IMG/VR virus record: IMGVR_UViG_3300042473_000506
Source of the DNA: a virus
Lineage: Duplodnaviria > Heunggongvirae > Uroviricota > Caudoviricetes
Direction: 5' to 3' (one strand)
Length of the DNA: 64,000 nucleotides
Below are positions 49,282-63,751 of this stretch, piece by piece (position 1 is the stretch's first letter; every line of letters begins with the position of its first letter). The notes under the pieces were generated by a model, which worked only from the letters and a program-made list of their open reading frames with translations, was not told where the DNA came from and ran no database searches. The position numbers were made by a program, and so were the translations under genes.

Positions 49282-49848
49282 ATGTACTTCTCATACTTAT
49301 CTCTTCCAAGATTACCTAAAGAATTTTTTGCTCAATGTTTGGAAAATGTAAAATACATTGGTGTAGATCCTAGACTAGAAAATGTTAATAGTTATCGAGG
49401 GCCAATGAATCGAGCTACGTATCTGCCCGAAGAATGTAATACATGGATTATTAGAAATATTGTATTTCCGTTATATGGAAGTATTCCTTCAACTCTAAAA
49501 TTAAATTTATTAAATGTAACTACATACCAAAAGTTAAAACCTCAAGAAGAGACATGGGGTACACACCCTAAACATATCGACAAAGGCAGAAACTGGGCAT
49601 TAAATTATTATTTTACCACTGGTGGAAGTAATACTACCGTTAGGTGGTACGAAGATAATGTTGTGGCAGCAGAAACACCACCTATAGAAATTAATAGATG
49701 GTGTTTATTAAAAGTTAATCAACTACACGATGTTAGAGGAATTGAAGAAGGTCAAATTCGATATTTTTTAACATTGAATATTTCTTCTGAAAATATAGAT
49801 AATTTTAAATCAGTAATTGATCAAAATACAGTGATTGAAAAAAAATGA
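49282..49848 (+). CDS. 2OG/Fe(II)-oxygenase-like protein, paralogue 8 (divergent)
   Basis: 'HPKHIDKGRNWALNYYF' ... 'NQLHDVRG' ... 'RYFLTLN'. Confidence 0.4.
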   Translation: MYFSYLSLPRLPKEFFAQCLENVKYIGVDPRLENVNSYRGPMNRATYLPEECNTWIIRNIVFPLYGSIPSTLKLNLLNVTTYQKLKPQEETWGTHPKHIDKGRNWALNYYFTTGGSNTTVRWYEDNVVAAETPPIEINRWCLLKVNQLHDVRGIEEGQIRYFLTLNISSENIDNFKSVIDQNTVIEKK

Positions 49849-51377
49849 CAGTAGATTGTTTGTTACTATATGGTAATCATTTATTACCTATGTCTAAATA
49901 TGCGGGAACATTTCGAATTGCTAGCGAGTTAAGAAATGCAGGCTATACTGTTCAGTGTATTGATATGACAGCGTATGAAGACAACCGTGAAGAACTCATC
50001 GATACAATAAAGATGTTTATAGGTAATAATACATTATGGGTGGGAATTAGTACAACCTTTTTGCGTCATGTATTTGGATATCCCTATTTTCGTACGATAG
50101 ATTCATTTAATGTAAAATCTACAACTATCCCAAATATTGATAAAGAAATTTTAAATTTTATTAAAACCGTTAAGGATATTAATCCAAACGTAAAATTTAT
50201 TGCCGGTGGCTCGAAAAGATTTATGATCGAGAAATACGGTTTTAAAGTTTTTACAAAAAATAATGATACTGAAATTATTGAGTTTACAGATTATTGTGCA
50301 AAAAAATCTAAAAAAATACCAGTAAGTTTTTTAGAATCACTGATTGAAGGTTCAGAATTTCAACAGTTTACAACAAGCCAAAATATCTTTACTAAGAACG
50401 ATATTGTCGAATCGTCAGATACCCTTCCTATTGAAGTTAGTAGAGGTTGTATTTTTAAATGTAAATTTTGTTCATTTCCACTTAATGGTAAAAAGAAAGG
50501 CGAATGGGTTAAACGTTCTAATGTATTGTATGAAGAGTTTATAAAGAATTATGAGTTGCATGGAGTAACAGAATACAGTTTTTCCGATGACACATACAAT
50601 GATAGTGAAGAAAAAGTTAAAAGATTGTATGACGAAGTGTATAGTAGGCTACCATTTAAATTAAACTTTACTACATATTTGAGACTTGATTTAATGATAA
50701 AATTTCCCGACACAGTGAAATACTTACAAGAGTCAGGTTTAAAATCAGCAGTCTTTGGTATAGAAACAATAAATCATAATTCAGGTAAGGCTATTGGCAA
50801 AGGTTTAAATCCCATTGAACAATTTCAGTTTATTGAAGAAATTAAAAAAAATGAATTTAAAGAGATACTAACTCGTTCTGGATTTATATTAGGGTTGCCA
50901 AAAGACAGACACGACGAGATTAATATCCTAGAAGAATTCTTATTTTCAGAAAAGAATAAATTAGATGACTTTAGTGTAGAACCTTTGATTATATTTCCTC
51001 CAAAATTTGATCAAACAAAATTTAAAGATTTTTCTGAATTTGATATAGAATATGAAAAATATGGATATAAGATTTATGAAAACATCGAAACATCTTCTAT
51101 TACTGAAATTAGATGGACCAACGATTATATCGGAATGACTTTTGATCAAGTAGCTAAAGCTGCAAAAAAAATAAATGTAAGAAAATATTTCGATGGTAGA
51201 TTCAAGTGCGGTGGATTTGGTTACAATTGGCATAGGTCTCTCGGAATTCCAGCAGATGATCTAGTGGCACTGAGTCGGAATGAAATATATACAAAGTATA
51301 ACGTCAAACAACTGCTAAAAACAAAAAAAGATAATTATCGATCATTAATACTTAATGTAATGAAAAATAATGAATAA
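49845..51377 (+). CDS. B12-binding-domain radical SAM enzyme (class-B rSAM-like)
   Basis: N-terminal Rossmann-like B12-binding region then 'SRGCIFKCKFCSF' CxxxCxxC cluster; 'TYLRLDL', 'ESGL..A.FGIE'; paralogue of 62063..63565. Confidence 0.65.
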   Translation: MTVDCLLLYGNHLLPMSKYAGTFRIASELRNAGYTVQCIDMTAYEDNREELIDTIKMFIGNNTLWVGISTTFLRHVFGYPYFRTIDSFNVKSTTIPNIDKEILNFIKTVKDINPNVKFIAGGSKRFMIEKYGFKVFTKNNDTEIIEFTDYCAKKSKKIPVSFLESLIEGSEFQQFTTSQNIFTKNDIVESSDTLPIEVSRGCIFKCKFCSFPLNGKKKGEWVKRSNVLYEEFIKNYELHGVTEYSFSDDTYNDSEEKVKRLYDEVYSRLPFKLNFTTYLRLDLMIKFPDTVKYLQESGLKSAVFGIETINHNSGKAIGKGLNPIEQFQFIEEIKKNEFKEILTRSGFILGLPKDRHDEINILEEFLFSEKNKLDDFSVEPLIIFPPKFDQTKFKDFSEFDIEYEKYGYKIYENIETSSITEIRWTNDYIGMTFDQVAKAAKKINVRKYFDGRFKCGGFGYNWHRSLGIPADDLVALSRNEIYTKYNVKQLLKTKKDNYRSLILNVMKNNE

Positions 51378-51426
51378 TTATCTAGGTAGAGTTAAATTAA
51401 CATTTTTACAAAATTAGAACTAACAA

Positions 51427-52347
51427 ATGGAAAGACATAATCAATGGATGAGCTACAGTTTTGATGCTATAGAATATGGCAAAAAAACTGATTCAAATTC
51501 TATTTTTAAAATTCATTTTAATAAAAAAATAGATAAAAATCTCCCTTCTTATAGAGATGCATTATTTAATAATGCCCGTATTATGCGAGACTCGTATAAT
51601 GAACCATTTGATGTAATGTTGTCAGGCGGAGTTGATAGCGAAATGGTTGTGCGAACATTTCATGCTGTGGGAATTAAACACAATACATTTATTTTTAGAT
51701 TAGAAAATGATTATAACATTCGAGATGTTAATTATGCCATAGCTGTTTGTAAAGAACTAAACATTAATTATAAAATAATAGATTTTAATTTACAAAAATT
51801 CTTCGAAAATGATGCACTTGATTTATTTCAAAAGACACTAATTCCAAGATCAGGAAGAATAGTGAGACTTGCGTGGTTTAACTATCTTGATAATATTCCA
51901 GTTTTTTGTGACGGTGAACCCTACTGGCGCAGGGATGCAAATAAAGATTTTAGTAAAAAATCTACGTGGAGATTAATTTTAAACGAAGACGGATACTCGT
52001 GTTCTACCTATGCTAAATCAATTGGTAGAGTAGCGATTGGGGATTGGTATGAATATACCCCCGAATTGTTATTGTCATACAACGAATTGCCGTTAGTTAA
52101 AAAATTACTCAACGACGAAATCTCAGGGAAGATTAGTTCCTGGAGTAGCAGGTCTGCTATTCACAGAGATATCTGGCCTACTGTACAGGATAAAATAAAA
52201 TTAGCAGGATACGAAGGTGCAGACGGCAATCCTGTATTGAGTCGTCCGGATTTTATGAATCACTTTCAGGTAACGTATATGAATCAAGTGTCCAATACTC
52301 ATTACGAATATACTGAAGAAGAACTAAGAAATTTAATCCTTAATTAG
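51427..52347 (+). CDS. asparagine-synthetase-like PP-loop amidotransferase domain protein
   Basis: 'FDVMLSGGVDSEMVVRTF' followed by 'FCDGEPYW' (compare AsnB 'SGEGSDEVFGGY'); paralogue of 55967..56896. Confidence 0.5.
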   Translation: MERHNQWMSYSFDAIEYGKKTDSNSIFKIHFNKKIDKNLPSYRDALFNNARIMRDSYNEPFDVMLSGGVDSEMVVRTFHAVGIKHNTFIFRLENDYNIRDVNYAIAVCKELNINYKIIDFNLQKFFENDALDLFQKTLIPRSGRIVRLAWFNYLDNIPVFCDGEPYWRRDANKDFSKKSTWRLILNEDGYSCSTYAKSIGRVAIGDWYEYTPELLLSYNELPLVKKLLNDEISGKISSWSSRSAIHRDIWPTVQDKIKLAGYEGADGNPVLSRPDFMNHFQVTYMNQVSNTHYEYTEEELRNLILN

Positions 52348-53172
52348 ATTTTCTCGGACCCAACGTCCCCAATGTATACAATGATACTCGTATTTTGATA
52401 GTGATTCGGTAACAGGAAAGAATTTTGTTTTTATCTTTTCGATCGCAGCAACATCTTCCCTAAACACAGTTTCTAATGTTTCAAATTCGATACGATCATT
52501 ATGTGGAACATCAGGGGCATAATAGAATTGTGTAATCCATTCGAATTTCCATTCTATATTTTTATCTGCAGGAACAATAGTGTTTACTGACAGGCATCCT
52601 TTCTTATGCTCGACAAAGGTGTAGGGGTATATATAGAGTGACCACCAACCTGGAGAATGTTCTTGGAATATCCATCCATCTCCTTGATCCATAACAACAT
52701 TATCTAAATCAATTTGTTCAGAGAGTCTCGGATGAATTCCATCCTTTTGTACATGTAAATAATCTGCTTCAGCATCCATGAGCCATAACCAGCTTCCCTC
52801 GCTTTTACCTTGAAGAGAATGACTATATTCTAGCGTTGTTTCTTTTTCCAGATCATCGACCCATTGATGGTCTGGTTCGATAAAATCTTTAAATACTAAC
52901 CCTGATCGACCAACAGTTGCAGTCCCACAATTTAATTTTTTAGAATTATTAATTGGTGTGCCATTTGCATCCCATTGAAATCCGTGGAACTTACATGTAA
53001 TGCTGTTGATATGTGTTCCTGGATCAGCTAGTGGATACATTCTGTGGGGACAAAATCTGTGAAATAAATTTACTATATTACCTTGTTTATTTAGAATATA
53101 TTCAGAAACTGCAAAGTTCTTGTCCTGCAATGCACTGAGATGAGCAAAAATTTTAGGAGATTTAATAAACAT
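52333..53172 (-). CDS. Rieske [2Fe-2S] non-heme-iron oxygenase
   Basis: 'CPHRMYPLADPGTHINSITCKFHGFQW' = CxH-x16-CxxH Rieske motif. Confidence 0.6.
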   Translation of the reverse strand: MFIKSPKIFAHLSALQDKNFAVSEYILNKQGNIVNLFHRFCPHRMYPLADPGTHINSITCKFHGFQWDANGTPINNSKKLNCGTATVGRSGLVFKDFIEPDHQWVDDLEKETTLEYSHSLQGKSEGSWLWLMDAEADYLHVQKDGIHPRLSEQIDLDNVVMDQGDGWIFQEHSPGWWSLYIYPYTFVEHKKGCLSVNTIVPADKNIEWKFEWITQFYYAPDVPHNDRIEFETLETVFREDVAAIEKIKTKFFPVTESLSKYEYHCIHWGRWVRENLIKD

Positions 53173-53204
53173 TGTAAGAGTAATGTGCGTATATAAATAG
53201 TTGT

Positions 53205-53792
53205 ATGTATGCTATTTACTTAAACGACATAGAAAGATTTATTGCGATTGAAAAAGATCTTTGGATTGCACATGCATCGGCAAAATTGCTATCTTCAAAA
53301 TTATCTATCTCTATATGTGATATCGGAAATGCATTGTCTGTAACTAACTATAACTGTTTTCAATGGACATTGTCAAGTGTAGACTTGCCCGCCTCTACAC
53401 AATATCCAAAATTAGTTGTACCAAAAGATTCTAAATTAGAATTTGTCGGTGATCCTATTAATACAGATATGGAAATGTTAAAATTGCATCAGCAATTTTG
53501 TTTGTTAGTATTAAAGGTTGTTTTTGCGGCAAAAATGACCGACATTGAATTAAATTCAGGAGATCGAAAATATTTTCAATCTTTACTTAAAAACGACACT
53601 TTACTATCTGCGTCGGACGAGTCCGGAATTCCTGGAGGGTTTTTACATACAATAGAAAGAATTCTTTATTTGAGTTCAAATGTAACGCACGTTATGTCTC
53701 ATATTGAATTAATGTTTAATAATTCAGAGAGTATATTTCCTAGAAATCTTGCACAATATAAATTACTATTTTACAAATACTTAAATGCATAA
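53205..53792 (+). CDS. hypothetical protein
   Basis: ORF. Confidence 0.3.
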   Translation: MYAIYLNDIERFIAIEKDLWIAHASAKLLSSKLSISICDIGNALSVTNYNCFQWTLSSVDLPASTQYPKLVVPKDSKLEFVGDPINTDMEMLKLHQQFCLLVLKVVFAAKMTDIELNSGDRKYFQSLLKNDTLLSASDESGIPGGFLHTIERILYLSSNVTHVMSHIELMFNNSESIFPRNLAQYKLLFYKYLNA

Positions 53793-55077
53793 ATTTTATT
53801 ACAAAACCTTTGATCCAAACCTTAGAAGTTTTTCTAAATTGCTCAGTAACAATGTAACTGATTTACCACCAGGCGGCAGATTCTATTTTAATCTTGCAAG
53901 ATCAATGCGTATGAGCGGTGAGAATTACCTATTTAGAGATGGGGAGTGGAGTGATCCTTTTAAAACTGTGGTCCACCCTACCTTTGCTATGCCATCATAT
54001 ACGTCAAATTTTAATTTAAATTTTTCAGAAGTATCGGACTTAAGGTCTCTCGATATTAAAAAAATCATCAACGATACTGATCGGTCGATAGTAATTCAAT
54101 GGTCTGGAGGAATTGACAGTACTGTAGCACTTGTATCTTTATTAAAAAATCTGTCACATTCTGAATTGTCAAATGTAATTATTGCAATGAGTAGCGACAG
54201 CCTTTTAGAAAATCCTAATTTTTATAATAAGTTTATTAAAGATAAATTCAAAATTATTGATTCTGAAAATATGTTGTTTAACGATTATAAAGAAAAATAC
54301 AATGCATATTGCATCATGGGAGACACAGGCGATTGTCTATTTGGTTCAGAATTAGGAAATAAATTATACCCTAAGATGAAATTTATACAAGATAACACTG
54401 GTCATCTTTATAACAAAATTAGTTCACCTGATGTACATTATTCAATCTATAGGGATATCATTGTACAGTATTTTAATGATAATCTTCAAACTTCAATACT
54501 TTCTTTAAAACAACAAGGTGTAGTTAACAGTAGTATTAGCGAATTTATTTCAGGGGACGAAACGTTTGGAGAACTATTCTACGAAAAAATTGTTAAGAAT
54601 ATAGAAACATGCAGTGTTCCTATATACAGTCTACATGACTTTTTCTGGTGGACAATCTTTAGTGGAAGATATATATTCTGTGCCCTAAGAGGACCTAGTG
54701 TGTTTAGCATCGGCGCCAATAAAGAGGCATTAATTAATGATTGTCTTATTCAATGGTTTAATACCGACGAATATCAACTATGGTCTATGAATAATAATAA
54801 CAATGGGGAAAAGTTATCTGGGCCTATACAAGGCCTTGGAAAAACTGCTGCAAAAAAATACATTTACGATTTTGATAAAAACGAATGGTATTTTACGCAT
54901 AAGATGAAAGTCGTGTCGTCACCAAATATTCTTAGAAGAAACTGGCGTAAACATTTTGCAGATTTTGATCCTATGCTAGGTGTTGATACAAATTACAATT
55001 TGATTAAAATAGGACCAGCGACAGTTAACAATTATGTCATTAATAGACTAATGAACTACAAAATAGATTGGTGTTAA
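53785..55077 (+). CDS. PP-loop ATP pyrophosphatase
   Basis: 'VIQWSGGIDSTVALVSLL' SGGxDS motif. Confidence 0.5.
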   Translation: MHKFYYKTFDPNLRSFSKLLSNNVTDLPPGGRFYFNLARSMRMSGENYLFRDGEWSDPFKTVVHPTFAMPSYTSNFNLNFSEVSDLRSLDIKKIINDTDRSIVIQWSGGIDSTVALVSLLKNLSHSELSNVIIAMSSDSLLENPNFYNKFIKDKFKIIDSENMLFNDYKEKYNAYCIMGDTGDCLFGSELGNKLYPKMKFIQDNTGHLYNKISSPDVHYSIYRDIIVQYFNDNLQTSILSLKQQGVVNSSISEFISGDETFGELFYEKIVKNIETCSVPIYSLHDFFWWTIFSGRYIFCALRGPSVFSIGANKEALINDCLIQWFNTDEYQLWSMNNNNNGEKLSGPIQGLGKTAAKKYIYDFDKNEWYFTHKMKVVSSPNILRRNWRKHFADFDPMLGVDTNYNLIKIGPATVNNYVINRLMNYKIDWC

Positions 55078-55970
55078 TTTTGAGTTATTTCTTTCTTATA
55101 TCGTTCTCTGAAAGACTTTAATAAAGAAATACTTGAATGGTAATGCAATTTTGAATCTTGATTATAAAAGACAGGACTTATAAAGTCTCCTAATCCAAAC
55201 AACTTATTCTTGCCTAAATTCATTGTAGCTTGATGAAATATAGCGGATATATTTTCTTTAGTTTCTTTGGGCATTTCTTTTGATGCCATAGTGAAATGAA
55301 AGATATATGGAGCTGTAATTTTTTGCTCAGTTAACGTTTTAATATTTGGGAGATCTGGGTGTCGTTCTGTGCAACTCATTCCGATTATTTGTAAGTTAGG
55401 ATTCTTTGCCTTGTACTGATTAAATGCAGATACACGCTCAACAATAAAGTTAATACTATTATTGTCAGAAGCCATGTGGAGCAGTGCATCTGCATTGCTT
55501 CGATACACAATATAGCGAACAGGTATATTATATTTTTTTCCTAGTTCTAGACCTAGTAGATGAGTAGCACCACCTATAGCAGGGCCGCCTATGGTAAGTT
55601 CTTTAGGAAGCTCATTTTCTTTAAAGTTAGTAATAATTGCCCAGCAGGCACTTCCGTGACTAAACACTGGTTCTAATTTATTTAGGTCAATTAGTCCTCT
55701 ACTTTCAGCTTCGACTACACTATTGGTAATAGTCACAACACGATTTTTTGGTTGTTCTAATGCCTCTCGAACACCTATACTTTCAAAGCCACCAGCTTTA
55801 AATTCTGTAACAAATTTATATTTGTTTTGTATTTTATTTGCTTCATCTAACACAGCGAATATTTGAGGAGTCATACTTTGCGTAGGTCCTTGAGCATTTA
55901 TTACTACAATAGTTTCTTGTGCCTGTGCTAGATTTAAAAATAACAATAAACTTACAATTATAAACTTCAT
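55074..55970 (-). CDS. secreted periplasmic-binding-like protein
   Basis: Signal peptide 'MKFIIVSLLLFLNLAQAQE'; size and layout like 48355..49263. Confidence 0.4.
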   Translation of the reverse strand: MKFIIVSLLLFLNLAQAQETIVVINAQGPTQSMTPQIFAVLDEANKIQNKYKFVTEFKAGGFESIGVREALEQPKNRVVTITNSVVEAESRGLIDLNKLEPVFSHGSACWAIITNFKENELPKELTIGGPAIGGATHLLGLELGKKYNIPVRYIVYRSNADALLHMASDNNSINFIVERVSAFNQYKAKNPNLQIIGMSCTERHPDLPNIKTLTEQKITAPYIFHFTMASKEMPKETKENISAIFHQATMNLGKNKLFGLGDFISPVFYNQDSKLHYHSSISLLKSFRERYKKEITQN

Positions 55971-56896
55971 GGGATTCCTTTAAATTTTTTGTTTACTTCT
56001 TCAAGTGAATACGTAAAACTAAGATTGGTTAAGTCTGACATTTGATTTTCCATATAAAAATCTTTAAAAAATTTAGGAAGACTTTCTAAAGGTGTTCCAG
56101 TCGGACCTTCGTAACCAATTAATTTTGATTTATTTTTTATGTCTGGCCATATCTGTTGATGTAAAGATATTCTACTAGAGAGGGTGCTTTTTTTGCCTAC
56201 ATTTTTATCATCTAGCAAATCTTTTATAAGATCATTTTGATGGTAACTCATTGTAATGTAGGGAGTGTATAGGTACCATTCTCCTATAATCTCTCTATTA
56301 TGATGGTGTGATGTTAACGACATAAAAAGCTGGCGCTCAGTAAGATACAGAGACCAATTAGATTTTTTTGTATAATCACTGAGCAAGTCTCGTTTCCAAT
56401 AAGGAGATCCTTCACCAAAAACAGGTATGTTATCTAAATAATCTAACCATTTAATTTTTGATAAGGACGGACTATGCGGCACTAACGTTTTTTCAAATAT
56501 GTCTTTAGCATCGTGTTCATAAAATTTAGATAAGTTAAAATCAATAATTTTATAAGGTATATTTAATGTTTCACATATCTGTATTGAAGAATTAATATCT
56601 CGAATATTTAAATTATCTTCGTACCTAAAAATAAATGTATTATGTGTTATACCTAAATCTTTAAAAGTGCGAACTATCACTTCGCTATCTATGCCACCGG
56701 ATAATAAAACATCAAACGGCTCTGAAAAAGAATCTCGCATAATACTTGCATTTTGTATCAATGCATCATGATACGACATTGGCATAATGTCGTTAGAGAT
56801 ATTAAAATGAATGTCCAGGAAAGATCTTCTAGAAGATTTAGGAGAATTTAAAATTCCGTCAAAAGAATACGTCATCCAATCTCTAAATCTTCTCAT
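55967..56896 (-). CDS. asparagine-synthetase-like PP-loop amidotransferase domain protein (paralogue)
   Basis: 'FDVLLSGGIDSEVIVRTF', 'FGEGSPYW'; ~50% identical over long stretches to 51427..52347. Confidence 0.5.
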   Translation of the reverse strand: MRRFRDWMTYSFDGILNSPKSSRRSFLDIHFNISNDIMPMSYHDALIQNASIMRDSFSEPFDVLLSGGIDSEVIVRTFKDLGITHNTFIFRYEDNLNIRDINSSIQICETLNIPYKIIDFNLSKFYEHDAKDIFEKTLVPHSPSLSKIKWLDYLDNIPVFGEGSPYWKRDLLSDYTKKSNWSLYLTERQLFMSLTSHHHNREIIGEWYLYTPYITMSYHQNDLIKDLLDDKNVGKKSTLSSRISLHQQIWPDIKNKSKLIGYEGPTGTPLESLPKFFKDFYMENQMSDLTNLSFTYSLEEVNKKFKGIP

Positions 56897-56902
56897 AGAA
56901 AA

Positions 56903-57235
56903 TTAAAGTTCTTCTTTTTCTACCGGGTCAGAATAAATGCCTACAGAAGTGTTATATGCATCGAGAGCGGCAGTTCTTTCAATCGTTACACTACGACTTG
57001 CATAGTCCTCGTAGAGTTCTTTACTTTCCCATATGAATTCTACTTCTAATGTCAGCTCGTCCGGTTCGGATAACGTTCTGATTTTTCTCCCATGAAACTC
57101 TCCGAACATCATTTCTAACATTCGGGTATTTAAATCTTCATCTAAGTTTAGATTAAAATACCATTCTATCGTTTCATTCGGTCTATGAAATCTGCTTAAA
57201 ACTCTATATGCCATGCTAATTCTCCAGTGATACAA
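56903..57235 (-). CDS. hypothetical protein
   Basis: ORF. Confidence 0.3.
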   Translation of the reverse strand: MYHWRISMAYRVLSRFHRPNETIEWYFNLNLDEDLNTRMLEMMFGEFHGRKIRTLSEPDELTLEVEFIWESKELYEDYASRSVTIERTAALDAYNTSVGIYSDPVEKEEL

Positions 57236-57297
57236 TTATTTATTGTTTTAGATAAGAGATCTTATATTTTGATGTGCTAGCAATATACTTTTAGAAT

Positions 57298-58080
57298 TTA
57301 CCATATTATAGCATAGTCTTTAAATTTGGTAGCCGACATAACTATCATATCTCTAGTTCTCTGTCGAACTATAGTTTGATAATTTTTTTTAACTGTTATA
57401 AATGCTGCAATTCTAATACCTGAAACATTTATTGATGGTGCATGTACTGCTCTAAAATTGTTTAGATAATATGCCATGTGCGGATCGGTCATCTTACAAT
57501 TAAAAATTTCTTCTTGCAATCTTCTATCCCCGCCGGTTAACGGTACAGTAATACCTTCCTGTCTGTAGTAGGGCAGTTTTGTTTTTCGTAATAATAATGG
57601 ATTATCATTGTAGTGTTCACACTCGAGGTAGAATCTAAAACCGGTTGGATCAACATCATTGTGCCAAAATGAAACACCTTTGACGGATTTTCTTACTGGC
57701 AAGAATATTGCACCACTAAGTTCATGTCGGCGTATTTTAAAAGCTTCATAGCAATATACTGCTAGTTCGGGAAATTCTTTATCAAAATTATTTTGCCAGA
57801 CGCCGTCCCAAGCACCCCAAACTAAATCCCAAGGGTATTCTTCTCCAATAATATCTTCAGCATTATCTGATTTAGACTTACAGGATTGCGGGTAGGCACT
57901 TTGCGCCCAAGATAAAAATTTTGTAATGTCTACATCCGGTCTCTTTGGGATGTCTAAGGGAGTATAACAAATATCAATAGGTTCCATACTTATTTTTTTT
58001 AATCTTGTTTGCTTATAACGGATATGCACAATATTTAAAAGAGCATTCATTGCTAAGTTATTTATTTTTAAAAATAACAA
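57298..58080 (-). CDS. hypothetical protein (possible further HxD...H oxygenase; real start may be Met at 57987)
   Basis: 'FWHNDVD' ... 'RAVHAPS' pattern. Confidence 0.3.
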   Translation of the reverse strand: MLFLKINNLAMNALLNIVHIRYKQTRLKKISMEPIDICYTPLDIPKRPDVDITKFLSWAQSAYPQSCKSKSDNAEDIIGEEYPWDLVWGAWDGVWQNNFDKEFPELAVYCYEAFKIRRHELSGAIFLPVRKSVKGVSFWHNDVDPTGFRFYLECEHYNDNPLLLRKTKLPYYRQEGITVPLTGGDRRLQEEIFNCKMTDPHMAYYLNNFRAVHAPSINVSGIRIAAFITVKKNYQTIVRQRTRDMIVMSATKFKDYAIIW

Positions 58081-58116
58081 TATGTCCGCATTGAATGGCT
58101 ATACAATTAGATTGCC

Positions 58117-58374
58117 CTAAGCAGAGGAGCTCATCCTCAAAAGATACATCGTAACTTCGGCACCCTCAACTTTAACTAGATCGCTAGGATATTTGTTAGA
58201 ACCAGTATACCATCTACTGGCACTCCTTCCTGCTTCCATAACTTTAACCATCTTGGGATTTAGTTTTTTAACAGTTCCTAGATCTAGGCTGTTTTGGCAA
58301 GGGTAGCAAACAGCATCACCTACTGCTAGCACTCGTCCTAGTTTATCTCTATGTTCAGGAATTGCTTTTGCCAT
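58117..58374 (-). CDS. hypothetical protein
   Basis: ORF. Confidence 0.35.
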   Translation of the reverse strand: MAKAIPEHRDKLGRVLAVGDAVCYPCQNSLDLGTVKKLNPKMVKVMEAGRSASRWYTGSNKYPSDLVKVEGAEVTMYLLRMSSSA

Positions 58375-58375
58375 G

Positions 58376-58630
58376 TTAGACTCTTTCTCTTTTCATACCG
58401 CCAATTCGACTGGCCTTGTTCCAGTCATAGGCAACACCATCCGGACACATTCCGTCCTTGATGCTATCCACTCCGAAGATACCTACAATTTCAAAATCTG
58501 GTCCTGTGATAGTTACAAACTCATTCATTGACTTGGCAACGTTCATAGCCTCAGCTAGTGTAAGCACCTTGAATATTTCTTCTTTACCTTTTACTTTAAA
58601 CATACATCTATTGTACTTTCTTTTCGACAT
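58376..58630 (-). CDS. hypothetical protein
   Basis: ORF. Confidence 0.35.
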   Translation of the reverse strand: MSKRKYNRCMFKVKGKEEIFKVLTLAEAMNVAKSMNEFVTITGPDFEIVGIFGVDSIKDGMCPDGVAYDWNKASRIGGMKRERV

Positions 58631-58674
58631 TTAGTCAAGAGAACGCCCCACACAAAGTGTGAGGCGTTTATTAT

Positions 58675-58749
<75 letters not shown>

Positions 58750-58890
58750 TTATCTTGTGAATTTTCTTACTAGTTTTAGCCAGTAGTATTTAACTCCGCG
58801 GAATGATGGAGGCCAATCCATTCCGAAACTAGGAGTTATTTCTTTTGGGACATTACCGTATGCTTTGTCAAGCGTTTCTTTTACTTTCAT
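58750..58890 (-). CDS. small ORF (46 aa) with strong RBS; not in ORF track
   Basis: Hand translation 'MKVKETLDKAYGNVPKEITPSFGMDWPPSFRGVKYYWLKLVRKFTR'; AAGGAG 5 nt upstream of ATG. Confidence 0.3.
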   Translation of the reverse strand: MKVKETLDKAYGNVPKEITPSFGMDWPPSFRGVKYYWLKLVRKFTR

Positions 58891-58954
58891 GTCTACTCCT
58901 TTAGTTAACAGGTTCTCATTTTATGTGCTACCACTACACCAACACCGCTGACCA

Positions 58955-59115
58955 AGCAGTGCCCAGGATTCGAACCTGGCCCGTCTTTTTTACAGAAAGT
59001 TTAATAAGATTGCTGAAAAGAACCTAAATGGTCAAACCATTTGTTATATTGTAGATTTTATCAGTTTATTGTTCTACAACCTCACGACGCCATGGCAGCT
59101 ATACTGCCGCACTGC
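58955..59115 (-). tRNA. long (~160 nt) tRNA-like element: canonical acceptor/T-arm with an insert; possible Tyr(GTA)-type anticodon hairpin
   Basis: T-arm CCAGG-TTCGAAT-CCTGG and perfectly paired 7-bp acceptor GCAGTGC/GCACTGC lie 150 nt apart; 'ACTTT-CTGTAAA-AAAGA' hairpin precedes the T-arm. Confidence 0.25.
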
Positions 59116-59282
59116 TCGATACCACCTCCCCTTTCAGGGCGTCCGGAATAACAAAATAAAACAGGATACCTTTTTCGATGGCTTGGAAGCCATTGCTCTA
59201 CCATTGAGCGATCTACGCAAAAGCGTGGAGTTGGAATCGAACCAACATGTCATTTAAGACGTTGCTGCATGTATCCTAAAAT

Positions 59283-59356
59283 TGGATGCGGGCCCAGGAT
59301 TTGAACCTGGGATGCTCCGAGCTTATGAGACTGGAGTGGTGGCCGCCCTGCCCGCT
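59283..59356 (-). tRNA. aberrant tRNA-like gene with CAT anticodon loop (CTCATAA)
   Basis: Good T-arm (CCAGG-TTCAAAT-CCTGG), 6/7 acceptor with unpaired 1-72, CAT in a loop closed by a mismatched stem, degenerate D-arm. Confidence 0.3.
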
Positions 59357-59423
59357 ATATTCTTTGCCACACTACTTATCCTATTATACACCGTGTGCCA
59401 TGGTGAATTCTTTCTTGTATTTA

Positions 59424-59501
59424 TGGTCGGAATAGTAGGATTCGAACCTACGACCCTCGCGTCCCAAACGCGATGCGCTAACCAGACTGCGCTACATTCC
59501 G
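59424..59501 (-). tRNA. tRNA-Pro (anticodon TGG)
   Basis: Clean cloverleaf: acceptor CGGAATG/TATTCCG, D GCGC/GCGC, anticodon TCGCG-TTTGGGA-CGCGA, T GTAGG-TTCGAAT-CCTAC, CCA encoded. Confidence 0.7.
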
Positions 59502-59508
59502 ATTTAAA

Positions 59509-59584
59509 TGGTACCTGGTGTCAGACTCGAACTGACATCGTTCTCCGTGTAAAGGAGATGCATAACCTCTCTGCGCAACCAGGC
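59509..59584 (-). tRNA. tRNA-Val (anticodon TAC)
   Basis: Acceptor GCCTGGT/ACCAGGT, anticodon TCTCC-TTTACAC-GGAGA, T GTCAG-TTCGAGT-CTGAC, CCA encoded. Confidence 0.65.
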
Positions 59585-59591
59585 AAAAATA

Positions 59592-59665
59592 TGGAGCGGG
59601 GTAAGAGAATCGAACTCTCAGCATGAGCTTGGAAGGCTCAGGTATTACCACTATACGAACCCCGC
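59592..59665 (-). tRNA. tRNA-Gly (anticodon TCC)
   Basis: Acceptor GCGGGGT/ACCCCGC, D GTAT/ATAC, anticodon TGAGC-CTTCCAA-GCTCA, T GAGAG-TTCGATT-CTCTT, CCA encoded. Confidence 0.7.
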
Positions 59666-59669
59666 ATAC

Positions 59670-60177
59670 TTTATTAAAACATACTCCCAACAAGTGTCTT
59701 ATGCTTGTTGTACCGTGTGCTAGGCACATTTCCTTTGCAAGGCTCCCCCGGGTTTGGGCTACGTAGACAAAGAATATATTTTAATAAAGTTACCTTATTG
59801 AAACACACTGTTGCGGCCGCAGGATACCGAGTGATGTAGTGAGTCGGAATCAAACCTTCCCAATCTACACAGTGCTCTCCACAATGCGTTTCAATAAAGT
59901 GTCTAGCTACTCACACCACATGAGCCCTAAACTGGTCTGTTGCTACGTCCATAACATTTTCTTCTTCTGGAAAGGCTGTTAATCCTCACCCTAGGCAGTT
60001 TCCAGTATCCCTTAAATAGGGACTGTGAGGTCAGGTCCTAGTGTACCCTCTGGTCTATCGTTACAGAGACGCTATTTCGTTACGTAGAAATAGTAAGACG
60101 GGTTTTCAACAGGTTAATACTAGTTTAATGACCTAGCAGTCGCCATATTTTTGATAGCTGTAATTAACCTAAAAACT
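59670..60177. ncRNA. ORF-free ~500-nt spacer in the tRNA array with multiple local stems; candidate small stable RNA(s)
   Basis: No ORF >=60 aa on either strand; hairpins such as cctcac...gtgagg and tccc-ttaaata-ggga, recurring TACGTAG palindromes. Confidence 0.25.
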
Positions 60178-60252
60178 TGGTGCCCCGTGTCTGAATCGAA
60201 CAGACGATCTCCGCTTTACAAGAGCGGCGCATTGCCACTGTGCTAACAGGGC
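60178..60252 (-). tRNA. tRNA-Thr (anticodon TGT)
   Basis: Acceptor GCCCTGT/ACGGGGC (one G.T), anticodon CCGCT-CTTGTAA-AGCGG, T GTCTG-TTCGATT-CAGAC, CCA encoded. Confidence 0.65.
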
Positions 60253-60261
60253 GCAATATAT

Positions 60262-60528
60262 TTAACCGCCCTGAGTGGAATCACTTACATTCTTTGACTG
60301 TTCATCTGCTAGATATGATGCTAGCTTTGATTGAAAGTCAGCTTCTGTTAGACCATGCCAACCGACACACTTACCAGTCGGACTACGACCACAACCGCAT
60401 TTTCCAATCTCATCTGCATTTTCTTGTACTCTTACTTGCATATCTTTCTTTCCAAAAATAGCGTCATAGTTGTTAGCAAATGTATTCTGGCTAACGCTAA
60501 ACGGACGAGCTCTTGAACCTTTTGACAT
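60262..60528 (-). CDS. small Cys-rich (probable zinc-binding) protein
   Basis: 'GKCGCGRSPTGKCVGWHG' cluster; 1-nt junction with the rpoZ-like gene. Confidence 0.4.
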   Translation of the reverse strand: MSKGSRARPFSVSQNTFANNYDAIFGKKDMQVRVQENADEIGKCGCGRSPTGKCVGWHGLTEADFQSKLASYLADEQSKNVSDSTQGG

Positions 60529-60758
60529 TACCGAACCTTTTTAAGATACTCTCTACCAATTTTACCTGCTTCAATTTCTTGCAAGGCAGTAATAGTGGCA
60601 CTGTTGGTTCCGCTAACTTGTTTAGCATGTCCACGTCGCAGTTCGCGAACTCGAGCACTGGCAATCAGAACTAGATCAAATCTATTGCCCACGGCTTCGA
60701 CACATTTGTCTGTGTCGATGTTCTGTGGAGAAAAGGGAACTTTAATAACTTTAATCAT
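60528..60758 (-). CDS. rpoZ: RNA polymerase omega subunit (RpoZ) homologue
   Basis: '[24 protein letters not shown]' and '[14 protein letters not shown]' parallel E. coli RpoZ '[24 protein letters not shown]' and 'TTVIALREIEEGLI'. Confidence 0.7.
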   Translation of the reverse strand: [76 protein letters not shown]

Positions 60759-60785
60759 CTATTACTTTCGTTGGTTTAAAAAATT

Positions 60786-60861
60786 TGGCTCCCCGGGCAA
60801 GGATCGAACTTGCGACCAACAGATTAACAGTCTGCTGCTACTACCGCTGAGCTACCAGGGA
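60786..60861 (-). tRNA. tRNA-Asn (anticodon GTT)
   Basis: Acceptor TCCCTGG/CCGGGGA, anticodon GCAGA-CTGTTAA-TCTGT, T GCAAG-TTCGATC-CTTGC, CCA encoded. Confidence 0.6.
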
Positions 60862-60868
60862 ATATACT

Positions 60869-61042
60869 TTACTTTGCGTCTCGCTCTTTAGAGGATCGCG
60901 GAACAATGTTCGCAGCCACTTGAGCATCTATCATTGCATTTTTGAATCCATGACGGTCTTGATCGTTCTTAAAACTCATCAATGCTATCATAGTCTTTGC
61001 TCTTTTACTCAACCTAAAAGTTGAACCTGTTCTTGCTCTCAT
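60869..61042 (-). CDS. possible small basic ORF (57 aa) between tRNAs; not in ORF track
   Basis: Hand translation 'MRARTGSTFRLSKRAKTMIALMSFKNDQDRHGFKNAMIDAQVAANIVPRSSKERDAK'; weak AAGGA upstream. Confidence 0.2.
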   Translation of the reverse strand: MRARTGSTFRLSKRAKTMIALMSFKNDQDRHGFKNAMIDAQVAANIVPRSSKERDAK

Positions 61043-61063
61043 TTTATTCCTTAAAAAATTTTA

Positions 61064-61138
61064 TGGTGGACCGAGGGAGGATCGAACTCCCACCCGAGGC
61101 TTGCAAAGCCACTGTGCTCCCATTATCACTATCAGCCC
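61064..61138 (-). tRNA. tRNA-Ala (anticodon TGC), one mismatch in anticodon stem
   Basis: Acceptor GGGCTGA/TCGGTCC (two G.T), anticodon GTGGC-TTTGCAA-GCCTC (T.T), T GGGAG-TTCGATC-CTCCC, CCA encoded. Confidence 0.5.
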
Positions 61139-61222
61139 ATATTAAAACACATTTAAACAGTCCTTCAACGCTAGTCGCTATCTCCCCTACTAGAGGGCGG
61201 ATCTGTATGTGTTTTAATATGG
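61137..61222. repeat. perfect 16-bp inverted repeat forming a long hairpin that fills the spacer between two tRNA genes
   Basis: 'ccatattaaaacacat' (61137-61152) and 'atgtgttttaatatgg' (61207-61222) are exact reverse complements, 54-nt loop; arms overlap the ends of both flanking tRNAs. Confidence 0.6.
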
Positions 61223-61303
61223 TGCCCCAGGTCGGACTCGAACCGACACGCCTCTCGGCACTGGCTTCTAAGACCAGCGTGGCTACCATTACACCACCGG
61301 GGC
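61220..61303 (-). tRNA. tRNA-Leu (anticodon TAG), type II
   Basis: Acceptor GCCCCGG/CTGGGGC, anticodon CTGGT-CTTAGAA-GCCAG, 13-nt variable arm TGCCGAGAGGCGT, T GTCGG-TTCGAGT-CCGAC, CCA encoded. Confidence 0.6.
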
Positions 61304-61357
61304 AAATTTTTATTATACAGGATATTTATAATCCTGTCAACCTCTATTTTAATAACT

Positions 61358-61434
61358 TGGTGCGCCCACTAGGACTTGAACCTAGGACCAAAGGATTATG
61401 AGTCCTCTGCTCTGACCAACTGAGCTATAGGCGC
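61358..61434 (-). tRNA. tRNA-Met or tRNA-Ile2 (anticodon CAT)
   Basis: Acceptor GCGCCTA/TGGGCGC, D GCTC-AGTTGGTCA-GAGC, anticodon GAGGA-CTCATAA-TCCTT, T CTAGG-TTCAAGT-CCTAG, CCA encoded. Confidence 0.65.
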
Positions 61435-61443
61435 ATCAATCAT

Positions 61444-61535
61444 TGGTACCAGCGGAGGGGATCGAACCCTCTCAAGAACGCTAATCTGGCGCTAAAAGGT
61501 CTATAAGGCCTCTCTGACTACCAAGTCTCGCTGGC
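61444..61535 (-). tRNA. type-II (long) tRNA-like gene, isotype unresolved
   Basis: Acceptor GCCAGCG/CGCTGGT and T-arm GAGGG-TTCGATC-CCCTC are clean; 92 nt; no regular anticodon arm found by hand (candidate loops CTTATAG or CAGATTA). Confidence 0.35.
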
Positions 61536-61544
61536 ATGTATGTT

Positions 61545-61634
61545 TGGCGGTGCGACTGAGACTCGAACTCAGAACCCGGATTACGCCGAGCGACGGATTA
61601 GCAATCCGCTCTAATACCATTATAGGACCGCACC
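61545..61634 (-). tRNA. tRNA-Ser (anticodon GCT), type II
   Basis: Acceptor GGTGCGG/TCGCACC, anticodon GCGGA-TTGCTAA-TCCGT, long variable arm, T CTGAG-TTCGAGT-CTCAG, CCA encoded. Confidence 0.6.
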
Positions 61635-61762
61635 AAATTTCCATTAGTTGAATCCTCTACACTATATGCCTATCCTCAACACGCTTTACTCGAGTTGACG
61701 GTTTATTGAATAGGTTACATAACGTATGATCAAACCTCTGTGCTTGCAAAGGATTCAATTAA

Positions 61763-61846
61763 TGGTGCGAGAGACGGGACTCGAACCCGTATGCCTTTCG
61801 GCGGCAGATTTTAAGTCTGCTGAGTATACCATTTCTCCACTCTCGC
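61763..61846 (-). tRNA. tRNA-Leu (anticodon TAA), type II
   Basis: Acceptor GCGAGAG/CTCTCGC, D GAG-AAATGGTATA-CTC, anticodon GCAGA-CTTAAAA-TCTGC, variable CGCCGAAAGGCAT, T ACGGG-TTCGAGT-CCCGT, CCA encoded. Confidence 0.7.
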
Positions 61847-61952
61847 AAAATACTAACTTTACATTTTTAAAGAACAGTGCTGTTATTAGCAGCGTATGTA
61901 TAAATTATACTGTCTTTCTCAGTGTGTGTCAACAGGTATTTAAAAATATTTT

Positions 61953-62026
61953 TGGTGCTCAAGCAAAGAATCGAACTTTGATTGCTGTCGTACCAAGACA
62001 GTGTACTACCATTGTACTACAAGAGC
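61953..62026 (-). tRNA. tRNA-Thr-like (anticodon GGT) with two T.T mismatches in the acceptor stem (possible pseudogene)
   Basis: D GTAC/GTAC, anticodon CTGTC-TTGGTAC-GACAG, T CAAAG-TTCGATT-CTTTG are perfect, but acceptor GCTCTTG vs CTTGAGC has two T.T. Confidence 0.4.
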
Positions 62027-62062
62027 ATTTTTGTGTTATCACTAGGAATCAAATCTAAATGT

Positions 62063-63565
62063 TTATTTTAGAGACATGAGATCATTATAATACGTTTGTA
62101 CAAACAAGTGAACTCTATTTTGCCATTCATTGTCTAAGTTGTATTCGCCCCATCGCAGTCTATCTATTTCTTCAACAGTGTATCCAAATTGTAGGACTTC
62201 AACTGCGTTCCAGCCGCCTCTTTTAACATGCGGGGCCGCGCTTTCAGTTAGCAAATTTGTCCATTTTACTACATCTAAAAATGTAAGACCTGATGAATGC
62301 TTCCACCAAGTTTGTCTCCAGAGACGCTTACCAATAGCGTAAGACTCGGGCAATACCTGTATTATTTCAAATCCATATTTTTCTGCATTACGTTCAAACT
62401 CACTAGTGAATACCGAAGTATCAGGTTTATTAAGTAATAAGGGAATTATTTTCCAGGATGTTATTTTATTATCGACACACCAGTTATGAGTTTCTTTTAA
62501 ATCATCTAATGTTTCTGGAGGAATGCCTGCGATAAAACTAAGATGTTCTTTTACTTTTCCCTGCCATCTGTCCTGTAACAAATGAGGCAAATAGTCTTTG
62601 GCTTTTTTTCCGCTAAATGCCTTTCCTACCAAAGCAGATGCATCTTTATTAAAACTTTCTATTCCAAAAAAAGCTCCATAAAGACCGCTTTCCAATAACA
62701 TATCTTCAGTATGACGATGAGCCTCAATTAAATCTAATCTTAAATAAGTTGCATATTTAATTTTAAAAGGTAAGGATGATACCATTTTGGCAAATTCTTC
62801 CAATCTTTCGGTGTCTGCATTAAATGTATCGTCTAAAATATAATAATTCGTTGTTCCAAATCTTTCGTAATTGTCAAGTAACTCATCTCTTATATTTTCC
62901 ATCGGTTTAAGGAAATCTTTTTTATTTTTTCCAATTAACGGATATTGACAGAATTTACACTTAAAAATGCATCCCCTGGTTGTTTCTAACGGCAATGCTT
63001 CATTTGGCTGTATAGCATCACTGTCATGCCACCTAAAATTACACTGCTCAATTGAAAATCCTTCATTACTTTGATACGAAGATTCTTTTACAATTTTGTA
63101 ACCGTCTGCACCTATTTCGACAAATGGCTGTGGACCTTTTTTAAAAATCCAATTGCAAAATTGTAACATTGTATTTTCAGCATGACCTGTAAAATAATAA
63201 TCAAGTGTTTTTTTTAATTTTCCTTTAATTATACCAACAGATGGGCCACCGGCTATTATTTTTAAATTTGGATGTTTTGTTTTAAGTTGTTTAATTGCTG
63301 AACTGAATATAGAAAAGAATACATCGTTAGCTTCTAATAAAATTCCTCCAAGGCCTATAACTTTGGTTTCATCTGTTACAAATTTTTCAAACAGTGCATT
63401 TACTTTATCCAATGTAAAAATTGGTTCAGAATAATTTATAACCTGTACTGTATAACCAAAGAGTCTTAAATACCAAGCTAATTGGTGACCCCCAATTGAT
63501 CTAGGAGCGGCGCCCCGATAATCGCTAATTGTTTGTATAATAATAACATTCATAATAGTAAACAA
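62063..63565 (-). CDS. B12-binding-domain radical SAM enzyme, second paralogue, embedded in the tRNA array
   Basis: 'TRGCIFKCKFCQYPL', 'DDTFN', 'TYLRLDL', 'ESGLYGAFFGIE' co-linear with 49845..51377; AT-rich like the island. Confidence 0.65.
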   Translation of the reverse strand: MFTIMNVIIIQTISDYRGAAPRSIGGHQLAWYLRLFGYTVQVINYSEPIFTLDKVNALFEKFVTDETKVIGLGGILLEANDVFFSIFSSAIKQLKTKHPNLKIIAGGPSVGIIKGKLKKTLDYYFTGHAENTMLQFCNWIFKKGPQPFVEIGADGYKIVKESSYQSNEGFSIEQCNFRWHDSDAIQPNEALPLETTRGCIFKCKFCQYPLIGKNKKDFLKPMENIRDELLDNYERFGTTNYYILDDTFNADTERLEEFAKMVSSLPFKIKYATYLRLDLIEAHRHTEDMLLESGLYGAFFGIESFNKDASALVGKAFSGKKAKDYLPHLLQDRWQGKVKEHLSFIAGIPPETLDDLKETHNWCVDNKITSWKIIPLLLNKPDTSVFTSEFERNAEKYGFEIIQVLPESYAIGKRLWRQTWWKHSSGLTFLDVVKWTNLLTESAAPHVKRGGWNAVEVLQFGYTVEEIDRLRWGEYNLDNEWQNRVHLFVQTYYNDLMSLK

Positions 63566-63593
63566 ATATTTATCATTAACTGTATATAAAACT

Positions 63594-63670
63594 TGGTCCC
63601 GCCAGTAGGAATCGAACCTACATTTAAGTCTTAGGAGGACCCCGTACTATCCATTGTACTATAGCGAGAT
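63594..63670 (-). tRNA. tRNA-Arg-like (anticodon CCT) with non-complementary acceptor stem (probable pseudogene or recombined gene)
   Basis: D GTAC/GTAC, anticodon GGGTC-CTCCTAA-GACTT, T GTAGG-TTCGATT-CCTAC are good; 5' end ATCTCGC cannot pair with 3' TGGCGGG. Confidence 0.3.
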
Positions 63671-63671
63671 A

Positions 63672-63746: not shown

Positions 63747-63751
63747 ATATG

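Follow-up and report, generated by a model that had tools for sequence, protein, structure and literature searches.

Two deeply diverged radical SAM enzymes with a predicted cobalamin-type fold in the accessory island and tRNA array of a myovirus-like phage

Introduction

Class I cobalamin (B12)-dependent radical S-adenosylmethionine (SAM) enzymes are defined by a five-strand/five-helix Rossmann domain located N-terminal to the radical SAM barrel (2026 review, PMC12931638). Here we analyse two genes whose products are predicted to have this architecture, termed copy 1 and copy 2, in a 64,000-nt stretch of DNA (hereafter the window) from IMG/VR record IMGVR_UViG_3300042473_000506, assigned to Caudoviricetes. 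In MiaB, which acts on tRNA, and in RimO, the N-terminal domain holds an auxiliary Fe-S cluster and not cobalamin. AprD4, a radical SAM diol dehydratase, and the ArsL homologues carry a Rossmann-like domain that does not bind cobalamin, and the review cautions that cobalamin-free Rossmann proteins occur inside similarity networks of B12-type radical SAM (B12-rSAM) enzymes (PMC12931638); it mentions neither phages nor tRNA.

On the viral side, "radical SAM gene cassettes" have been noted in hypervariable regions of aquatic T4-like myophages (pelagimyophages and cyanomyophages; PMC7029224), and lipid desaturases have been described in cyanophages (PMC5776448). Our literature search returned no characterisation of phage B12-type radical SAM enzymes. 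For the window, the joint explanation that we consider probable is that both genes belong, as ancient paralogues, to a class-B family, with copy 1 placed in a tailoring operon of an AT-rich island and copy 2 forming a solitary cassette in a tRNA array.

Results

Two deeply diverged radical SAM genes in one window

The initial annotation had recognised two homologous open reading frames (ORFs) sharing a series of motifs. Both the homology and the motifs held up: the proteins align at 29% identity over 441 aa (BLASTP, E 2e-48), with RGCIFKCKFC, DDTYN/DDTFN, TYLRLDL, ESGL and FGIE aligned in both copies, and a tblastn search of the window yielded no third paralogue. Copy 2, flanked by tRNA-Thr(ggt) and tRNA-Arg(cct), is separated from copy 1 by 10.7 kb, in agreement with the distance of about 11 kb and the flanking tRNA-Thr(GGT)-like and tRNA-Arg genes given earlier. 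A database protein of 496 aa (P0001) is 100% identical to copy 2, and its length suggests that translation of copy 2 probably begins at the ATG at 63553, which yields 496 aa.

The G+C content (GC) of the window falls to about 0.32 from 39 kb on, marking an AT-rich island (39.3-58 kb, GC 0.324). As annotated, copy 2 resembles this island (GC 0.333) and differs from the tRNA array that flanks it (GC 0.443). At third codon positions (GC3), copy 2 has a value of 0.234 and copy 1 of 0.211, compared with about 0.45 in the core genes.

Similarity searches returned 703 homologues of copy 1, the next best at 79% identity, and 394 homologues of copy 2, the next best at 74%. Their relationship was assessed in a non-redundant set of 139 family members taken from 161 viral loci (IMG/VR contig stretches encoding relatives of the radical SAM genes, labelled L001 and so on), in which the copies rank 106th and 126th among each other's neighbours. 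They fall into separate deep clades in opposite halves of the family tree, and each of these clades is closest to others than its counterpart. No nucleotide similarity links the two genes, and alignment of their flanks gave only chance words of 9-11 nt and no recombination scar. Judged from these comparisons, the copies appear to be ancient paralogues from two deep clades.

This result bears on the initial proposal that copy 2 is a displaced duplicate of copy 1, separated from it either by insertion of the tRNA array or by expansion of the island around the array. A recent intragenomic duplication of this kind would fit the island-like GC and GC3 of copy 2 amid compositionally different tRNAs, the presence of copy-2-type genes inside the same module type in other phages, and the interleaving of small oxygenase island genes with tRNAs in a sister phage. 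We nevertheless reject a recent pair with one displaced member and regard the scenario as very improbable, since each copy has hundreds of closer homologues (74-79% identity to the nearest, against 29% between the copies) and neither the low mutual ranks nor the lack of DNA similarity and of a scar agrees with it. In addition, sister phages have an island that is fully syntenic with that of copy 1 and lacks a copy-2-type gene, and array embedding recurs in the 74% relative and in several other clades, so that placement in arrays has been repeated and is not a one-off displacement. What survives of the proposal is the interleaving of island genes and tRNAs, seen in the sister locus L166 and in the composition of copy 2; a split of copy 2 from copy 1 is contradicted by the closer homologues elsewhere.

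Both proteins are predicted to have a cobalamin-type fold

Copy 1 and copy 2 belong to the radical SAM superfamily, as both exceed the cut-off of the Pfam Radical_SAM model PF04055 (44.8 and 40.8 bits, respectively; cut-off 29.5) and the CxxxCxxC cysteines are invariant in both family alignments. AlphaFold models built on these alignments (predicted local distance difference test score 90.9 for copy 2 and 89.7 for copy 1) show an N-terminal five-strand Rossmann domain, a TIM barrel with the CxxxCxxC cluster motif and a C-terminal alpha/beta-helical domain. In these AlphaFold2 (AF2) models the five strand-helix units span residues 7-142 of copy 2 and residues 5-151 of copy 1, the latter with extra helices, so that both show the domain arrangement by which class I is recognised (PMC12931638). 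In a Foldseek search of the PDB with either model, CysS, TsrM, OxsB and TokK came first (E 1e-12 to 1e-14, template-modelling (TM) scores 0.5-0.63); the top matches were TsrM (1.9e-13) and CysS for copy 1, and CysS (6.6e-14) and TsrM for copy 2. The models thus bear out the N-terminal Rossmann region of class-B type postulated for both proteins, and neither N-terminus lacks the B12-binding fold.

Sequence profiles point in the same direction. While single-sequence searches of PDB sequences gave no informative relative, the copy-2 family profile (alignment A1) reached TokK (E 1.3e-3) and CysS (E 3.6e-3) and aligned its "aGG" Rossmann strand with the cobalamin domain of TokK. The two subfamilies conserve this strand and a G-x-S/G strand, both characteristic of cobalamin Rossmann domains, almost without variation, and a precomputed match to the Pfam B12-binding model PF02310 is recorded for about half of the copy-2 relatives. 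The best NCBIfam models are all B12-rSAM families: PhpK, the ladderane-lipid B12-rSAM, HpnJ and BzaD. The PhpK-family model TIGR04479 scored 90 bits on copy 2 (E 1e-25) and 52.8 bits on copy 1 (cut-off 600), and the PhpK, TIGR04072 and HpnJ models together gave 53-90 bits against cut-offs of 360-600, with alignments covering the Rossmann and radical SAM domains. As these scores lie far under the curated cut-offs, we reject membership of any named family. Overall, the models support a B12-type (class B) fold in both copies. We infer from it that both would use cobalamin, a step beyond the fold because the cobalamin-free AprD4 and MiaB match nearly as well.

Copy 2 is embedded in a tRNA array, as are some of its relatives

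Copy 2 is probably co-transcribed with the surrounding tRNAs, given that it is co-oriented with them at a spacing of 28-40 nt and that the gaps lack regulatory sites: neither promoter-like nor terminator-like sites were found between tRNA-Arg and copy 2 or between copy 2 and tRNA-Thr. In its 74% relative (L166), the gene likewise lies between co-oriented tRNAs, with Gly and Val upstream and Cys and Leu downstream, and small oxygenase-like island genes are interleaved nearby. More distant members abut or are embedded in large arrays in L007, L009, L016, L020, L025, L049, L059, L066, L140 and others.

Across the non-redundant set, a tRNA lies within 1 kb of 28 of the 139 copies and tRNAs lie on both sides of 13; the nearest tRNAs are co-oriented with the gene in a ratio of 36:5, and upstream gaps are commonly 12-25 nt. 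By clade, 6/15 members of the copy 2 clade but 0/15 of the copy 1 clade have a tRNA within 1 kb. Among the 36 loci with at least five tRNAs, radical SAM genes were array-embedded in 19 of 49 cases, compared with 3/22 for desaturases and 0/32 for PP-loop and TctC genes (Fisher p 2e-5), an enrichment that is indicative only, as the loci were chosen for carrying the radical SAM gene and are partly redundant.

Relatives of copy 2 also occupy other sites. The 52% relative (L167) and protein P0008 (L001) lie inside a desaturase/PP-loop/GNAT/Rieske/NMO module like that around copy 1. These varied placements suggest that copy 2 is an island-type cassette able to reside in the module, in a tRNA array or elsewhere. 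The arrays also hold genes for an HNH endonuclease, an Rpb6-like protein and small oxygenase ORFs.

Two further features of the array were noted. On the tRNA strand downstream of copy 2 there are two perfect 12/12 sigma-70 consensus promoters (TTGACA-17-TATAAT) at 61904-61932 (-) and 61312-61340 (-); the total number of promoter-like sites in the array region is not above that in shuffled sequences, yet two perfect matches within 6 kb stand out. A 76-aa ORF inside the array (60528-60758, -) encodes an RNA polymerase Rpb6/omega domain (PF01192, 51 bits). Members of its family (cluster c39) were identified in 11 related viral loci and are array-embedded in 6/10; in L163 and L164 the gene directly adjoins tRNAs.

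Copy 1 lies in a conserved island operon

The genes around both copies are listed in Table 1. The stop of the 188-aa ORF that ends at 49848 overlaps the start of copy 1 at 49845. Full synteny with the island around copy 1 is seen in the sister contigs L163-L165, where the radical SAM protein is 78% identical and the order of the 188-aa ORF and copy 1 is the same; PF00487 is assigned to the desaturases in these contigs.

Table 1. Features of the island and the tRNA array in the window
Feature	Coordinates	Strand	Evidence or remarks
At least 7 small (about 180-240 aa) AspH-like oxygenase paralogues and a GNAT gene (42328-42936); island start	39354..44169		ORFs, HxD...H...R alignment
DesA/acyl-lipid-type membrane fatty-acid desaturase-like proteins	44129-44950 and 45554-46330	+	His boxes; DesA 68 and 91 bits, below 400
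186-aa ORF between the desaturases, no function assigned	44947-45507	+	
NMO/FabK-like flavin mononucleotide (FMN) oxidoreductase	46330..47202	+	PF03060 53 bits; weak FabK match, E 4e-10
388-aa protein with PP-loop motif (SGGADS)	47192..48358	+	Recurrent cluster 5; no profile match
TctC/Bug-family periplasmic solute-binding protein, signal-peptide-like N-terminus	48355..49263	-	PF03401 83.5 bits
188-aa AspH-like Fe(II)/2-oxoglutarate (2OG) oxygenase-like protein	49282..49848	+	HxD...H...R signature; no Pfam match of its own
Copy 1, predicted class-B-type radical SAM enzyme, 510 aa	49845..51377	+	ORF
PP-loop ATP pyrophosphatase-like protein, 306 aa	51427..52347	+	SGGxDS region; weak QueC, MnmA, NadE and Asn synthase matches, N-terminus only
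Rieske [2Fe-2S] protein	52333..53172	-	PF00355 32.4 bits; kept in L163-L165 and L167
430-aa PP-loop-like protein	53785..55077	+	PRK06850 and DndC (N-terminus like DndC/3'-phosphoadenosine 5'-phosphosulfate (PAPS) reductase), E 1e-4 to 8e-4
Second, weaker TctC-like protein	55074-55970	-	PF03401-type, signal-peptide-like N-terminus
Second copy of the PP-loop family, 309 aa	55967..56896	-	49% identical to 51427-52347; QueC N-terminal match, 24 bits
tRNA array of 18 tRNAs, contains copy 2, runs off the window end	58676..64000	-	ARAGORN; 16/18 above the Rfam gathering score
tRNA-Thr(ggt), 36 nt downstream of the copy 2 stop	61953..62026	-	ARAGORN
Copy 2, predicted class-B-type radical SAM enzyme, 500 aa from TTG	62063..63565	-	ORF
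tRNA-Arg(cct), 28 nt upstream of the copy 2 TTG (40 nt from the ATG)	63594..63668	-	ARAGORN

Neighbour families counted over 162 loci show that the commonest partners of the radical SAM genes are desaturases (64 loci) and two PP-loop families (48 and 36 loci). The oriented trio desaturase > radical SAM > PP-loop is found in the window and in L084, L086, L097 and L099, all with members of the copy 1 clade. The 388-aa PP-loop family (cluster 5) comprises 45 copies in 36 loci, and a 51% identical gene adjoins the copy-2-type radical SAM gene of L167, which also has an NMO/FabK-like gene beside it. The 430-aa family (cluster 17) recurs in 21 loci, and the 306-aa family occurs in metagenomes only, annotated as "hypothetical". 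No known subfamily fits the PP-loop partners; their matches, of which NadE is the best, are confined to the generic ATP-pyrophosphatase region at the N-terminus.

The small island paralogues (about 185 aa), including the ORF coupled to copy 1, carry an HxD...H...R signature and align with a relative positive for PF05118 (Asp/Asn beta-hydroxylase), which suggests that they are probably Fe(II)/2OG oxygenases. At least eight AspH-like paralogues in one phage (39354-44169 and 49282-49848) constitute an unusually large expansion, and in the sister phage L166 such paralogues are interleaved with tRNAs (64-630 and 2642-3196). A third TctC gene is present in the sister contigs. The phage TctC/Bug proteins suggest redirection of a host tripartite tricarboxylate transporter and hint at a betaproteobacterial-type host.

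The family is essentially restricted to uncultured aquatic phages

Relatives are encoded by 446 and 374 pattern-matched IMG/VR stretches, on contigs reaching 450 kb in length, many of which carry two or three family copies. An exhaustive profile search of 1.84 billion representatives recovered 1,064 clusters (50% identity) at E<=1e-30. By contrast with this viral abundance, one genome each of about 185,000 cellular species contained only 17 loci, mostly on short contigs of metagenome-assembled genomes (MAGs). Neither protein matched a PHROG family, and the 50,697 deposited phage genomes contained no protein match, a search with the region yielding tRNA matches only. The initial remark that such enzymes are unusual in phage genomes therefore holds for cultured phages (0/50,697) and fails for uncultured ones. 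In UniProt and BFVD, members appear only as unnamed "COG1032 Fe-S oxidoreductase [uncultured Caudovirales phage]" entries (TM 0.89). The family is thus found almost only in uncultured aquatic phages; it recurs in viral contigs with variable placement and atypical GC3 and is rare in cells, as expected of accessory-island genes.

The exceptions among the cellular loci include two Enhygromyxa salina isolates (L169/L170, about 6347-9467), whose homologue, 37% identical over its full length, was the sole match among cultured cellular organisms. It is located on a large chromosomal contig, directly after genes for an AMP-binding acyl-adenylating enzyme and a DSBA-domain protein. Beyond this adjoining AMP-binding enzyme, the cellular homologues (Enhygromyxa and a Burkholderiales MAG) offer little context.

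Related islands show additional diversity. In L036, L038, L061, L063, L069, L077 and L116, two or three B12-type radical SAM paralogues are adjacent to each other, and some of these and other related islands hold further radical SAM types (a 427-aa SPASM protein, 360-aa and 344-aa proteins and an HMPTM zinc-ribbon protein) as well as TauD, a QueC-like protein and a class I methyltransferase. A DUF3050/haem-oxygenase-like di-iron protein (PF11251, 273 bits), absent from the window, directly adjoins radical SAM genes of the copy 2 clade in seven loci (L005, L007, L009, L010, L011, L015 and L017).

The window represents a large myovirus-like phage

Strong scores for rIIA, rIIB, a baseplate wedge and long tail fibres among the window proteins identify the source, to judge from these sequences, as a large myovirus-like phage. 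Its closest deposited rIIA is at most 28% identical, and the phage has no close cultured relative. Other accessory genes encode a ClpP protease, a Bax1-I family membrane protein, a D-Ala-D-Ala carboxypeptidase, GTP cyclohydrolase I, a dCMP deaminase, an SPFH/Band 7 protein and an HD_4 (RelA/SpoT-type HD) protein; this dense accessory set occupies 13784-14368, 20492-21178, 21893-22726, 24656-25354, 27248-27781, 31601-32398 and 36696-37232. The tail-fibre gene at 3040-6006 (-) has a GC of 0.446 and a GC3 of only 0.218, against about 0.45 in other core genes; as it matches collagen-like and tail-fibre PHROGs, repeat-driven codon composition is likely.

Discussion

Proposed function of the two copies

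By analogy with class I enzymes, we propose that the [4Fe-4S] cluster of either copy would reductively cleave SAM to a 5'-deoxyadenosyl radical, which would abstract a hydrogen from an unactivated carbon of the substrate. Base-off methyl-cobalamin on the Rossmann domain could then methylate the substrate radical; C-methylation is the most likely outcome, and ring contraction or another rearrangement, as in OxsB and HpnJ, a less likely one. If the enzymes do use B12, it must logically be supplied by the host. Copy 1 would act with the desaturases, the FabK/NMO-like reductase, the PP-loop adenylating enzymes, the coupled oxygenase, the Rieske protein and the TctC proteins in an operon that may tailor a metabolite during infection. 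Our best guess for its substrate, a weak one, is a fatty-acyl or lipid-like compound or another carboxylate; the lipid-like option is suggested by the desaturases, the FabK-like reductase, the adenylating enzymes, the lipid B12-rSAM model among the top matches and the acyl-adenylating neighbour in Enhygromyxa. Copy 2 would be transcribed on the tRNA precursor and freed by tRNA processing.

Several observations weigh against parts of this proposal. In the profile check envisaged in the initial annotation, Radical_SAM was above its cut-off and the B12-binding domain below it: PF02310 scored 15.2 bits on copy 1 and 17 bits on copy 2 (cut-off 32.1) and was assigned to 0 of the 120 copy-1 relatives listed. 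In Foldseek, AprD4 (E 1e-11, TMt up to 0.63), MiaB and RimO (E 2e-11 to 1e-8) are nearly as good as the cobalamin enzymes, about two orders of magnitude behind them. Searches of the window and of the recurrent neighbours turned up no genes for cobalamin biosynthesis, salvage or transport, and Rfam searches near the genes gave tRNAs only and no cobalamin riboswitch or other non-coding RNA. The named-family scores are too far under their cut-offs for reaction and substrate to be transferred. As to genomic context, the copy 1 module combines O2-requiring enzymes (desaturases, 2OG oxygenases and the Rieske protein) with an O2-sensitive radical SAM enzyme, and rather than a single pathway the island may represent a mosaic of unrelated accessory genes. 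For 9/15 members of the copy 2 clade the nearest tRNA, if any, is more than 10 kb away, and the 64% relative (L162) has ClpP as its neighbour and no tRNA.

Much of this evidence could also be explained if the proteins were cobalamin-independent, with a Rossmann-like domain that is structural or binds substrate, as in AprD4 or the ArsL homologues, and if they catalysed a radical reaction other than methylation, for example dehydration, rearrangement or 3-amino-3-carboxypropyl transfer. The rank of AprD4 among the structural matches, the sub-threshold PF02310 scores, the lack of cobalamin-related genes nearby and an ArsL model match of 35 bits on copy 1 would all be in line with this, as would the warning about such proteins within B12-rSAM networks (PMC12931638). 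We consider it possible though unlikely, given that the best profile and fold matches are the true cobalamin enzymes TokK, CysS and TsrM, that the "aGG" and G-x-S/G strands are retained in both subfamilies, that many copy-2 relatives pass as PF02310 and that the ArsL match is confined to the radical SAM core, far below its cut-off of 450. A role on tRNA has a different basis. Copy 2 and other array-embedded members might act on phage tRNAs or their precursors and be encoded where their substrates are made, which would account for the tight, co-oriented embedding in several clades, for its absence among the PP-loop and TctC partners, and for the likeness of the fold to that of the tRNA methylthiotransferase MiaB (E 2e-11). 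This idea seems improbable to us, and its stricter form, in which the array-embedded enzymes modify phage tRNAs or precursors made from the same transcript, quite improbable. The NCBIfam RimO model scores 21 bits against a cut-off of 357 and MiaB-like matches are marginal; Pfam detects no TRAM domain in either copy, no other RNA-binding domain was found, and the N-terminal three-Cys auxiliary-cluster motif is missing, with no conserved N-terminal cysteines in alignment A1 and only C5 in A2. Moreover, array-adjacent copies are not more basic than others (median isoelectric point 6.42 vs 6.44, p 0.65), the identity of the neighbouring tRNAs is not consistent, close copy 2 relatives lie in the metabolic module or elsewhere without tRNAs, and the review mentions no B12-rSAM enzyme acting on tRNA (PMC12931638). 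The unrelated genes found in the arrays suggest that arrays may simply be permissive insertion sites.

We also weighed whether the enzymes could be C-methyltransferases acting on a phage or host protein, in the manner of the maturases of ribosomally synthesised and post-translationally modified peptides (RiPPs), with AspH-like hydroxylases and, in other phages, SPASM radical SAM and ATP-grasp enzymes as partners. Related phage neighbourhoods do contain SPASM radical SAM, Asp/Asn beta-hydroxylase, TauD and ATP-grasp genes, and the RiPP models ApyD (40 bits) and rSAM_ocin_1 (24 bits) match weakly. Both scores fall below those of the PhpK and lipid models, and neither copy was found to adjoin a conserved small ORF resembling a precursor. 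The partners conserved with copy 1 comprise membrane desaturases and PP-loop enzymes instead of peptide-maturation proteins, and we give such a role little credence. The reading of the two copies as ancient paralogues within a class-B family, one in an operon and one in an array, remains the one that we favour.

Significance

What is new here is a large, phage-restricted and uncharacterised family, often with several copies per genome, its conserved operon placement with desaturases, small oxygenases and PP-loop enzymes, and its repeated co-oriented embedding in tRNA arrays. If cobalamin is bound, large uncultured aquatic phages carrying this family of about 1,000 clusters would rely during infection on B12 from the host and on Fe-S/SAM radical chemistry. 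The desaturase/small oxygenase/radical SAM/PP-loop operon is a candidate phage-directed tailoring pathway, possibly for lipids, and an enzyme gene of about 1.5 kb repeatedly lodged between co-oriented tRNAs suggests that tRNA processing serves accessory-gene expression. Were copy 2 a tRNA-modifying enzyme after all, it would be the first B12-type radical SAM enzyme on tRNA and a new layer of phage translation control. For annotation, the window illustrates that two similar genes in one phage need not be recent duplicates.

Comparison with known systems

Among described phages, the closest setting is provided by the variable islands of aquatic myophages, which likewise hold radical SAM cassettes, stearoyl-CoA-type desaturases, Asp/Asn beta-hydroxylases and transport genes (PMC7029224, PMC5776448); these reports mention the genes only in passing and do not describe the B12-type family, its size, the operon or the array embedding. 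With MiaB and RimO, both copies share a flavodoxin/Rossmann-like N-terminal domain followed by a radical SAM barrel, from which the window families differ by the absence of the three-Cys auxiliary-cluster motif and of the TRAM domain. AprD4 and the ArsL homologues show a comparable fold match, and the window proteins, too, are sub-threshold for PF02310; unlike them, the window families keep the cobalamin-type GG strand, and their profile matches TokK and CysS, not AprD4. PhpK (TIGR04479), TIGR04072 (ladderane-cluster type) and HpnJ are the best-scoring curated models and cover the Rossmann and radical SAM domains, yet the scores stay below cut-off and no phosphonate, ladderane or hopanoid genes occur in the neighbourhood.

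In architecture, both copies correspond to ordinary class I B12-type radical SAM enzymes. They have domain order and fold in common with TsrM, CysS, TokK, OxsB and QCMT, the class I enzymes of solved structure, and like the base-off enzymes of this class they lack a DxHxxG motif. Compared with these enzymes, the proteins described here are only 12-17% identical (TM 0.5-0.63) and shorter, at about 500 aa against 530-730, and they are encoded by phages.

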